Source: Escherichia coli
GTDB lineage: Bacteria; Pseudomonadota; Gammaproteobacteria; Enterobacterales; Enterobacteriaceae
NCBI RefSeq assembly: GCF_003334385.1
Contig: NZ_QOWN01000050.1
Strand: one strand, 5' to 3'
Length of the DNA: 33,016 nt
The notes under the pieces are model-generated. The model was not told where the DNA came from and did not search any database. It worked only from the letters and a program-made list of their open reading frames with translations. The number at the start of each line of letters is the position of its first letter. The stretch's first letter is position 1. A program made the translations under genes and the position numbers. Shown one piece after another: positions 10,943-21,404 of this stretch.

Positions 10943-10973
10943 AGGAACAGACAAACAGTTTCAAACGCTAAAT

Positions 10974-11073
10974 TGCCTGATGCGCTACGCTTATCAGGCC
11001 TACATGATCTCTGCAATATATTGAGTTTGCGTGCTTTTGTAGGCCGGATAAGGCGTTCACGCCGCATCCGGCA
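10974..11073. repeat. RIP/BIME-type element
   Basis: TGCCTGATGCGCTACGCTTATCAGGCCTAC ... GCAATATATTGAG ... GTAGGCCGGATAAGGCGTTCACGCCGCATCCGGCA. Confidence 0.8.
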
Positions 11074-11093
11074 AGAAACAGCAAACAATCCAA

Positions 11094-18336: not shown

Positions 18337-18353
18337 ACACATTTAATAAAAAA

Positions 18354-18380
18354 AGGGCGGTCGCAAGATCGCCCTTTTTT
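18354..18380 (+). terminator. rho-independent terminator after pgm
   Basis: AAAGGGCG-GTCGCAAGAT-CGCCCTTT followed by a T-run. Confidence 0.75.
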
Positions 18381-18400
18381 ACGTATGACAAACACAGAAT

Positions 18401-18500
18401 TGCCTGATGCGCTACGCTTATCAGGCCTACGAGGATGGTGCAATATATTGAATTTAAGCGATTTTGTAGGCCGGATAAGGCGTTCACGCCGCATCCGGCA
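18401..18500. repeat. RIP/BIME-type element
   Basis: TGCCTGATGCGCTACGCTTATCAGGCCTAC ... GCAATATATTGAAT ... GTAGGCCGGATAAGGCGTTCACGCCGCATCCGGCA. Confidence 0.8.
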
Positions 18501-18549
18501 AAAACAACGAACACTTTGTCAACAAACTGAGTAGCTCAAGGAAATCCCA

Positions 18550-19044
18550 ATGAAGACCAACAGGAGTCTGGTCGTCATAGTGTCACTAATTACCGCCACA
18601 TTACTGCTGACTGCATGCGCCCAACCTGAACAATCATCATTAGCTGGCGACTGGTTACTGACCCCTAAAGATAAAACCAGAGGATTAACGGGTAGCATTG
18701 CGGTAAATATTGCACCTTTCCGGTGTAAGACAAATTGCCGTGGTGATAACTTACCTGATAATACCCGCCGCTGGCAGTTGTCAGGCGGGAACGAAAAAGA
18801 ACTTACTTATCTTCATAATATGTCAGCACAAGAAAAGGTCGGTTTAAATCCCGGTTGGCAATGCTACACCTCATTTTTTATGCGGGTTTGCCAGGGCAAG
18901 CCCGGCACTCGACCGATAGTCAATGAGGATTATGTCAGCGAAAGCGGATTTTTTGGCTCGATGATGCATGTCGGGATTATTGAGTTACGACGCTGCCAGT
19001 CAGAAAATTGCCAGCAAGAATTGAAAGCGATAAATACACATTAA
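18550..19044 (+). CDS. ybfP: lipoprotein YbfP, 164 aa
   Basis: Signal peptide with lipobox LTAC (MKTNRSLVVIVSLITATLLLTACAQ). Confidence 0.8.
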   Translation: MKTNRSLVVIVSLITATLLLTACAQPEQSSLAGDWLLTPKDKTRGLTGSIAVNIAPFRCKTNCRGDNLPDNTRRWQLSGGNEKELTYLHNMSAQEKVGLNPGWQCYTSFFMRVCQGKPGTRPIVNEDYVSESGFFGSMMHVGIIELRRCQSENCQQELKAINTH

Positions 19045-19084
19045 AATAGTGAGTCCGGGAATGAAACCCGGACCTGAACATGTC

Positions 19085-19735
19085 TTATTGCGTGAATGTT
19101 TCTTTCATTTGATACTGCATTTCCCAGAGTTCAGTAAGCGAAATAACTTTTCTTGTTCTTGCTTCTTCACTTTGTACCCATAAGAAAGGGTAGAACGTGA
19201 AGGCTTCCGTTGCCGATAATTTTATTACGTCTTCTCGCCATTGCTGCCATCGTACATTTTCATAGAAGGTATCTAAATCACCGGATAATGCCCACTGAAG
19301 AAACTCAGAATATCCAACTTCCAGACTTTCCCAATTCAGCGTATCTGGCGCAAAATAATAAACGCAGCCAGTATCTTCCCCAAGATCGCCACCATTAAGA
19401 GCAAAAATTCCCCCTGCGACATCGTCAGCGATGGGTAAAGCCCGCACGCCTGCGAATTCAGGGCGTTGTGTCCAACTTACTGGATCTCGTGGCAACCGGG
19501 GGTGACCAGATCCTGCTATGCGTAACCAACCATTATCAATCAGCAGACCTCCGGAGCCATAGACAAGCGCACCCATCGGTGATTTTGTTGTCACCTGTAA
19601 TTGATAAAGTGCGGTTTCGGCTAAATCTTTATTAACCGGTAAGAGTTCGGTATGGTTTGTGGCGTCTTTTAACCAGTTCTGGATTATTGGCCAGGCTGAA
19701 TCTTCAGTATTTACTAACTGATTCATTTCACGCAT
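19085..19735 (-). CDS. ybfG: uncharacterised protein YbfG (I recall DUF2625 family), intact here, about 216 aa
   Basis: The track ORF runs 19085..19843; I place the start at the internal ATG (19733..19735), which has AAGGAG 9 nt upstream. Confidence 0.6.
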   Translation of the reverse strand: MREMNQLVNTEDSAWPIIQNWLKDATNHTELLPVNKDLAETALYQLQVTTKSPMGALVYGSGGLLIDNGWLRIAGSGHPRLPRDPVSWTQRPEFAGVRALPIADDVAGGIFALNGGDLGEDTGCVYYFAPDTLNWESLEVGYSEFLQWALSGDLDTFYENVRWQQWREDVIKLSATEAFTFYPFLWVQSEEARTRKVISLTELWEMQYQMKETFTQ

Positions 19736-19856
19736 CGCTACTTGCTCCTTGTGTGCTACGGTGTCATTTATGATGAGGAATTGTATGGAACATTTTTTAA
19801 ATATTAAGTTCCTTATATTTGAATAAAAAATGACTTTATCCATACATTGCCACTTT

Positions 19857-19989
19857 TTTCAAAGCATAAACCGATACCCAATACCGGTTTCAGTAATAAA
19901 ATGGCGAGGCCGGGCCGGATCCTGTTCCAGTTTTTGTCGCAGATGCCCCATATAATTACGCAAATAGTTGCTGTGTTCGATCGCGTTTA
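19857..19989 (-). pseudogene. 3' remnant of a kdpE-like response regulator (C-terminal winged-helix, about 44 codons)
   Basis: About 90 percent nucleotide identity to the 3' end of kdpE at 24195..24330, same orientation, in frame, with the stop conserved: LNAIEHSNYLRNYMGHLRQKLEQDPARPRHFITETGIGYRFML. No N-terminal receiver domain or start codon. I think K-12 annotates this as pseudogene ybfI but am not certain. Confidence 0.6.
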
Positions 19990-20044
19990 GACCCTACATC
20001 TGCCGGATGCGGCATAAATAACGAACTATTTGCCAACAAACAGA

Positions 20045-20075
20045 AAGGGCGATCATTCAATCGCCCTTTTTTACT
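20045..20075. terminator. rho-independent terminator downstream of potE
   Basis: GGGCGAT-CATTCA-ATCGCCC hairpin with T-rich flanks on both strands. Confidence 0.75.
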
Positions 20076-20083
20076 TTGTTTTA

Positions 20084-21404
20084 TTAACCGTGTTTATTTT
20101 TCAGTTCAAAGCGTGGTGATACCAGACCATACAGTGTCCAACCAAGGAAGGTCACGATGGAACCGTACAGCATGGCTTCTTCCCCGGATGAGTACAGCGC
20201 ATAAAAGCTATACATCGCGCCAACAAAAGCAACAAAGTTTGCAACTTTCGCTTTTGAGGGGGGCACATTAGCGACCTTCTGAATAATGACTAATGCCGCC
20301 ATTGACAGAATATACGGAATGATATTGGTCACCACGGCCAGGTTAACCAGCACGTTGAACTGACTGTTTAGCGACGGGCTAATGGTCATCAGTGCCAATC
20401 CACTCTGAATAATCACAATGGTCAACATTCCCTGCACCGGTGCATCCACTTTGGTTACACGGGAGAAAATTTTAGGGAAGTAGCCTTCATCAGATGAAGA
20501 TTTAAACACCTGGGCAATGGTGAACTGCCAGCCAAGTAGCGAACCGCAGCAGGACATCACCATCAGCGCCATAATGACTTTACCCACTTCCGGCGTGAAC
20601 ATCTGCGCGAAGGCCAGACCAAATGGTGCCGTTGAATTTGCCAGCTCCATATTTGGCACAATCCCGGCAATCACGTTGGTGGAGACGATATAAATCACCG
20701 CCGCACCTAACGTACCGCCGAGTACCGCGATTGGCACATTACGTTCCGGGTTTTCCACTACATCAGTATTCGCACACGCAGACTCCAGACCAAGAAAAGC
20801 TCACAGCGTCATAGCGATGGAAGAAACCTACCGCACTGAAGAACGGTGCATGATGCGGATTCCAGGAATCAACGTACAGCGTCGGGCTAAACCAGAACCA
20901 GCCAATAATGCACAGACCGACGACCGGAATAATGACCCCCCACACGGTAATGCTACTGATTTGCCCGGTAATGCGCGCACCACCAAAGTTAGCCACGGTA
21001 CAAATCCACAGCACCCCGATGGTCGCAAGACCAATCTGCACTGGCGACAAACTCGCGCCGAGCAGTTCGGTGCCGTAACCAACCGCCGAAATAGCAATCG
21101 CGACGTTAGCAATCAGCAGTGAGACGCCGTAGGTATAGTTCGCCATAAAGTTACCGGATTTACCGAAAGCATACTCGGCATAACCGCCCATACCGCCTGA
21201 TTTACGGCTGAACATACCGCATTTTGCGAATGCCCATGCCAGTGCCATTGAGCCTACGGCTGTCACCAGCCAGGAGATAATTGAGATTGTCCCGACTTCG
21301 GCAAGCTTTGTCGGCAGCATGATGATACCGGAGCCCATCATGTTGACCATCGTCAGTATGGTTAACTGAACGACGCCCATTTTGTTCGATTTAGCCTGAC
21401 TCAT
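20084..21404 (-). pseudogene. potE: putrescine-ornithine antiporter PotE, reading frame disrupted
   Basis: Two track ORFs in different frames (20763..21404 and 20084..20758) together cover the 439-aa PotE. The frame breaks after ..FFSAVG by one extra T in a T-run (+ strand AAA at 20824..20826), and the restored frame reads SSIAMTL-stop-AFLGLESACANTDVVENPERNV, with TGA (+ strand 20801..20803) where Trp is expected. Confidence 0.8.

Follow-up and report, generated by a model that had tools for sequence, protein, structure and literature searches.

The last 48 codons and the stop codon of kdpE are matched twice in a 33,016-nt stretch of Escherichia coli DNA (NCBI RefSeq assembly GCF_003334385.1, contig NZ_QOWN01000050.1; hereafter, the window), once by the 3' end of the functional gene itself and once, 4.3 kb away, by a dead fragment. 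This fragment is the already annotated non-functional pseudogene ybfI, and it very probably represents the decaying tail of an Escherichia-lineage kdpE, located at the edge of a variable block and retaining nothing more than passive homology to its parent. Patterns in other E. coli genomes suggest that the two copies occasionally exchange sequence and that, on rare occasions, the genes between them are lost while kdpE stays intact.

The ybfI fragment and its parent gene

BLAST comparison of the window with itself and with K-12 pairs positions 19858-20002 (the ybfI' pseudogene) with positions 24194-24338 (the parent-type copy at the functional kdpE 3' end; kdpE coding sequence, 24195-24872) as a 145-bp repeat without gaps, in which 131 of the 145 positions are identical (90.3%, 14 mismatches, E = 1e-49). 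Both copies lie on the minus strand, which confirms the proposal of an initial annotation of this DNA that the kdpE 3' end is repeated nearby in the same orientation at about 90% identity. Over the narrower interval considered there, a MAFFT alignment yields 93% identity, and the similarity is not shorter than had been claimed; the 44 open codons and TGA stop given there also hold, but the end point does not, as the similarity continues for about 13 bp to position 20002. Between the copies lies a 4.3-kb unit formed by potE, speF and speFL (20084-23961, minus strand), so that the gene order is ybfG, fragment, potE, speF, speFL, kdpE. Within this unit, potE (20084-21404, minus strand) carries one extra A at position 20824 relative to K-12 (GGAAGAAACC versus GGAAGAACC), which splits it into two ORFs in different frames and reflects either a genuine frameshift of this strain or a sequencing error.

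Translated in the kdpE frame, the fragment consists of the 44 open codons followed by the TGA stop (19859-19861). At the 45th codon counted back from the end, the fragment reads TAG (19994-19996) and kdpE TGG; beyond it come three further homologous codons and then a partial REP. Upstream of the point where the homology starts, 48 codons before the stop, only REP and terminator sequences are found. As the initial annotation had stated, the receiver domain (Pfam Response_reg) is absent from the fragment, and its translation revealed neither an ATG in the homologous part nor a ribosome-binding site. The Pfam Trans_reg_C model is matched at positions 42-77 of 77 only, corresponding to KdpE residues 182-225; thus, a complete winged-helix DNA-binding domain is absent and only its C-terminal half is represented. 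Over its last 30 codons, the fragment differs from K-12 kdpE at synonymous sites only. In K-12 MG1655 the element is annotated as pseudogene ybfI (b4636; NC_000913.3, 716721-716870, minus strand), between ybfG and potE, and over 12 kb the window and K-12 share 99.93% identity, rising to 100% in the 145-bp fragment. In other strains, PGAP labels it as a 'winged helix-turn-helix domain-containing protein, incomplete, missing N-terminus'. A literature search for the E. coli ybfI element (b4636; ybfG/ybfP/kdpE context) returned no paper.

No sign of a function beyond passive homology was found in the sequence. One could imagine that the fragment has been kept for a role, either as part of the 5' leader or promoter region of ybfG, whose start (19735) lies 123 bp downstream on the same strand, or as a source of a small protein. 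Weak promoter-like hexamers overlap the stop codon of the fragment, which is retained across deep lineages, and where its TAG is replaced by CAG, a 65-aa 'hypothetical protein' ORF (P0001; the equivalent of window positions 19859-20056, minus strand) is called on 452 contigs. However, promoter-like sites are at the level of shuffled sequence (5 versus 3.8 expected), an Rfam scan found no family at threshold, and the divergence of the fragment between lineages corresponds to the neutral rate. The ORF, in turn, starts inside the loop of the potE terminator, lacks a ribosome-binding site, is affected by a 1-bp deletion in one lineage and by the TAG in the window, and is probably an annotation artefact. 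With ybfG itself being a pseudogene in K-12, a retained role is hardly credible, and the fragment is best regarded as a relic.

The variable pgm-potE block and the ancestral gene order

The fragment belongs to a 1.66-kb variable block between pgm and potE (18383-20043, break points obtained by BLAST against NZ_CP031293), which comprises a BIME, ybfP, ybfG and ybfI' and is absent from the pgm-potE allele. In this empty allele, nothing but one 56-bp terminator lies between pgm and potE, and potE-speF-speFL are still next to kdpE. With two different queries, 1824 or 1845 of 5426 complete E. coli genomes (~34%) were positive for the block or fragment. The only genes in the block are ybfP, which encodes a lipoprotein (18550-19044, plus strand), and ybfG (DUF2625; 19085-19735, minus strand); a search of the block for a transposase or integrase was negative, and neither YbfP nor YbfG gave a PADLOC hit to known defence families. 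At positions 19410 and 19527 of ybfG, the window has C and C instead of the A and T of K-12, leaving here an intact gene of 216 codons. Between two deep lineages, dN/dS is ~0.21 for ybfP and ~0.27 for ybfG, and weak purifying selection on these uncharacterised accessory genes is indicated. The spacer between ybfG and ybfI is a recurrent site of IS1 insertion, in at least 13 genomes among those listed, including a K-12 MG1655 derivative (e.g., locus L024, positions 701-1398, NZ_CP010440; locus L004), and in one strain IS1 removed the segment from ybfI through part of kdpD.

Two short direct repeats flank the block, but their order is swapped between the sides. On the left, a copy of the pgm/potE terminator hairpin (18352-18382, plus strand) is followed, upstream of ybfP, by a REP end with its tail (18488-18530, plus strand). 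On the right, the REP end with tail comes first (20002-20044, plus strand; 43 nt, 81% identical to the left copy), joined to the truncated 5' end of the fragment, and the terminator hairpin copy follows directly downstream of potE (20044-20074, plus strand; 31 nt, 81% identical to the left copy). Specifically, the partial REP CCGGATGCGGCA at 20003-20014 is succeeded by a 30-nt tail and by the potE terminator hairpin (20042-20075), in agreement with the earlier description of this flank as abutting a partial REP and the terminator. The REP remnant, TGCCGGATGCGGCA at 20001-20014, retains 12-13 nt of the ~35-nt REP consensus palindrome and is 89% complementary to the full REP at 18483-18500; the left REP (18469-18533) gives a sub-threshold match to Rfam naRNA4. 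The 30-nt tail has no further copy in the window (0 expected by chance) and is found at one locus per E. coli genome, on which ground the possibility that it belongs to a dispersed, REP-adjacent repeat family was rejected. Terminal inverted repeats with a short target duplication were not found, the flanks being instead the 31- and 43-nt direct repeats (~81% identical), and the inverted matches at the block edges are the palindromic terminator and REP themselves. The intergenic regions of outgroups are not alignable with those of E. coli and were set aside as a means to decide which terminator copy is the original. Elsewhere in the window, BIME-like copies at 2537-2677 and 10962-11087 are 85-88% identical to the pgm-ybfP BIME (18401-18501).

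In Salmonella enterica, Citrobacter koseri and C. amalonaticus, the genes are arranged as kdpD-kdpE-speFL-speF-potE-(0 or 1 gene)-pgm-seqA, and the order kdpE-speFL-speF-potE-pgm is also found in most E. coli. Because this order is common to Salmonella, the two Citrobacter species and most E. coli, the position of speF-potE between kdpE and pgm is ancestral; the lineage-specific part is the ybfP-ybfG-ybfI' block and not speF-potE.

This bears on the history originally proposed for the fragment, namely that an old duplication or rearrangement placed speF-potE and ybfG between it and the kdp operon. The idea of a non-coding, kdpE-derived scar stands, whereas the part in which speF-potE is the newcomer is unsupported: the comparison of synteny with the outgroups shows speF-potE in place there, and ybfG lies on the other side of the fragment, not between it and kdp. 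In its strongest form, this proposal would have speF-potE inserted or duplicated between the kdp operon and a kdpE end already in place, with the fragment being that original end. Two genomes in which ybfG is directly downstream of a full-length kdpE lend it some substance: the observed structure would result if a speF-potE segment with a kdpE 3' end attached were integrated into such an allele, and an intermediate allele of this type followed by re-entry of speF-potE may be the route. However, these two genomes carry kdpE-type rather than ybfI-type sequence, and their flanks are almost identical to those of block-carrying strains, for which reasons they look like recent deletion products and not like ancestors; the view that they preserve the ancestral source allele was rejected as the main reading on the same evidence. 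Together with the gene order common to Salmonella and Citrobacter, this makes a late arrival of speF-potE unlikely.

Other E. coli alleles without speF-potE exist (loci L016, NZ_CP069882; L017, NZ_LR882990; and L018, NZ_CP007392), with the arrangements pgm-ybfP-BIME-kdpE, pgm-BIME-kdpE and pgm-IS200-BIME-kdpE. In each of them, a REP lies 10 nt from the kdpE stop, which has changed from TGA to TAG, and even-step sampling suggests that each is present in a few percent of genomes. These BIME-kdpE alleles are not simple derivatives of the fragment, and they show the interval to be a rearrangement hotspot.

Origin and age of the fragment

Among the kdpE alleles compared, the fragment is closest to those of E. 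coli (86-90.5% identity), followed by those of Citrobacter (79-82%) and Salmonella (77%). At most of the positions where it differs synonymously from K-12 kdpE, the kdpE alleles of E. coli themselves vary, and changes seen in ybfI alone are for the most part nonsense or nonsynonymous. For these reasons, decay of a kdpE end of the Escherichia lineage fits the sequence better than import from a distant species. An import would mean that the end of another species' kdpE arrived by horizontal transfer together with ybfP-ybfG, and that the 10% divergence reflects the distance between species instead of decay. Several observations could be read in this way. The stop codon marks the exact end of the homology, and the sequence downstream of it bears no relation to the E. 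coli kdpE flank, which would fit import from another genomic context and counts against the preferred explanation. Likewise, the block genes may be foreign, in that all close relatives of YbfG and YbfP are named as E. coli or Escherichia and the next YbfG homologs, from Pantoea, Kosakonia and Erwinia, are ~54-57% identical. Finally, the differences confined to synonymous sites in the last 30 codons might point to a foreign ortholog; this reading of the synonymous excess was nevertheless rejected, as E. coli kdpE alleles vary at most of the sites concerned and the live kdpE adds only synonymous changes anyway. In addition, YbfG searches found no donor outside E. coli with kdpE next to ybfG; a scan of species-representative genomes for YbfG yielded nothing beyond two Paenibacillus loci and a MAG contig contaminated with E. 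coli, with no outgroup context, and a protein search with a 52-aa reconstructed peptide retrieved short fragments only, with no full-length KdpE and no donor lineage named. Import is thus improbable, and decay of an Escherichia-lineage kdpE tail remains the preferred account.

The age of the decay can be approached through a second deep E. coli lineage, whose YbfG is ~88% identical to that of the window and in which the region is ~96-97% identical overall. Its orthologous fragment shares the TAG, the H>N change and the I>N change with that of the window and has, in addition, a 1-bp deletion of its own. Between the two lineages, ybfI has diverged by ~8%, and dS of the neighbouring genes is 0.07-0.20. 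The match between these values, together with the shared TAG, H>N and I>N changes, implies that the fragment was dead before the lineages split and has drifted neutrally since; it encodes nothing of use.

As to how the fragment arose, its fusion to the partial REP, with a possible 2-nt overlap, suggests illegitimate joining. The last 48 codons and stop of an Escherichia-lineage kdpE would thus have been severed at an illegitimate junction with a REP, leaving the fragment at the potE-proximal edge of what appears to be an E. coli-specific accessory block, ybfP-ybfG-ybfI', in the pgm-potE interval. Two routes are plausible. The fragment could have arisen by recombination of the ancestral pgm-potE-speF-kdpE allele with one that had ybfG abutting kdpE. 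Alternatively, a segment could have been duplicated locally and one of the copies then replaced, the break being sealed at the REP. The swapped order of the flanking repeats is predicted by no simple one-step model.

Exchange between the fragment and kdpE, and related systems

The 145-bp direct repeats around speFL-speF-potE would support occasional gene conversion in both directions. In the direction from kdpE to ybfI, the ybfI of one draft genome (L009; GCA_036599325.1) is 100% identical to the kdpE end of the window over all 145 bp, with flanks 99.84% identical to the window, and in a metagenome contig only the 5' half of ybfI has been converted to kdpE sequence. Fully converted ybfI was found in 0 of the 5426 complete genomes, and full conversion rests on short-read draft data. 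Given that the evidence comes from one short-read draft and one metagenome contig, the fully converted ybfI may be an assembly chimera. In the opposite direction, kdpE of strain 504239 (L001) has three clustered silent sites of the ybfI type. This three-site allele occurs in 36 of 5426 complete genomes, 34 of which also hold ybfI, and it could be an old polymorphism instead of a conversion. In the same strain, an unrelated segment with an extra annotated small ORF takes the place of the speFL-kdpE intergenic region (L001 12041-12587 versus window 23740-24193; 546 versus 453 bp), and this segment adjoins the kdpE allele with the ybfI-type patch.

The repeats would also allow a rare deletion of 4.3 kb that leaves kdpE intact. 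CUWW10 and GF4-3 (2 of 5426 complete genomes) lack speFL-speF-potE, and in them ybfG and the downstream flank of ybfI are joined to a full-length, intact kdpE. Only a single repeat copy is present, with flanks 98.6-99.2% identical to the window, the structure that a crossover between the two copies is expected to leave. It is tempting to speculate, although only tentatively, that the dead fragment acts as a recombination handle, seeding silent variation in kdpE and making the acid-inducible speFL-speF-potE unit precisely excisable with no damage to kdpE, thus adding to the presence/absence polymorphism of these genes.

For gene function, the fragment has little consequence, being an annotated pseudogene with no sign of action. 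Its interest lies in the pgm-kdpE interval as a hotspot, for which at least six structural alleles exist in E. coli, and in the apparent capacity of a 145-bp relic, 10% diverged, to still exchange sequence with its parent gene and to mediate the loss of a 4.3-kb operon, which would make it a clear natural case of conversion between a bacterial pseudogene and a live gene. Caution is therefore advisable when typing kdpE or speF-potE alleles, or when reading short-read assemblies, at this locus. The ybfI pseudogene was already known; the evidence for recombination with kdpE is a small addition.

Several known systems can be compared with this locus. With regard to ybfI (b4636) of K-12, the element itself is identical, having the same position, strand and sequence, but the K-12 annotation is silent on how it arose, how it is distributed in the population and how it recombines with kdpE. 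KdpE, an OmpR/PhoB-family response regulator (PDB 4KNY, 4KFC and 3ZQ7), aligns with the fragment over residues 182-225, with 40 of 44 residues identical; unlike functional KdpE, the fragment is devoid of a receiver domain, of a start codon and of the first half of the DNA-binding domain, contains an in-frame stop and is not a functional member of the family. The fusion of its truncated end directly to a partial REP, with the possible 2-nt overlap (TG), likewise resembles rearrangement junctions associated with REP and BIME elements. In Salmonella, REP sequences were reportedly identified by Shyamala, Schneider and Ames (1990) where the ends of tandem duplications join. The present locus differs from a REP-joined tandem duplication in that it repeats three distinct short segments, in swapped order on the two sides. 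Finally, gene conversion from pseudogene to gene and deletion between short, diverged direct repeats, as expected from RecA-dependent ectopic recombination, find a parallel here in the mosaics in both directions and in the precise 4.3-kb deletion. Compared with RecA-dependent ectopic recombination in general, the events at this locus are rare (36, 0 and 2 of 5426 complete genomes) and are deduced from sequence patterns alone.
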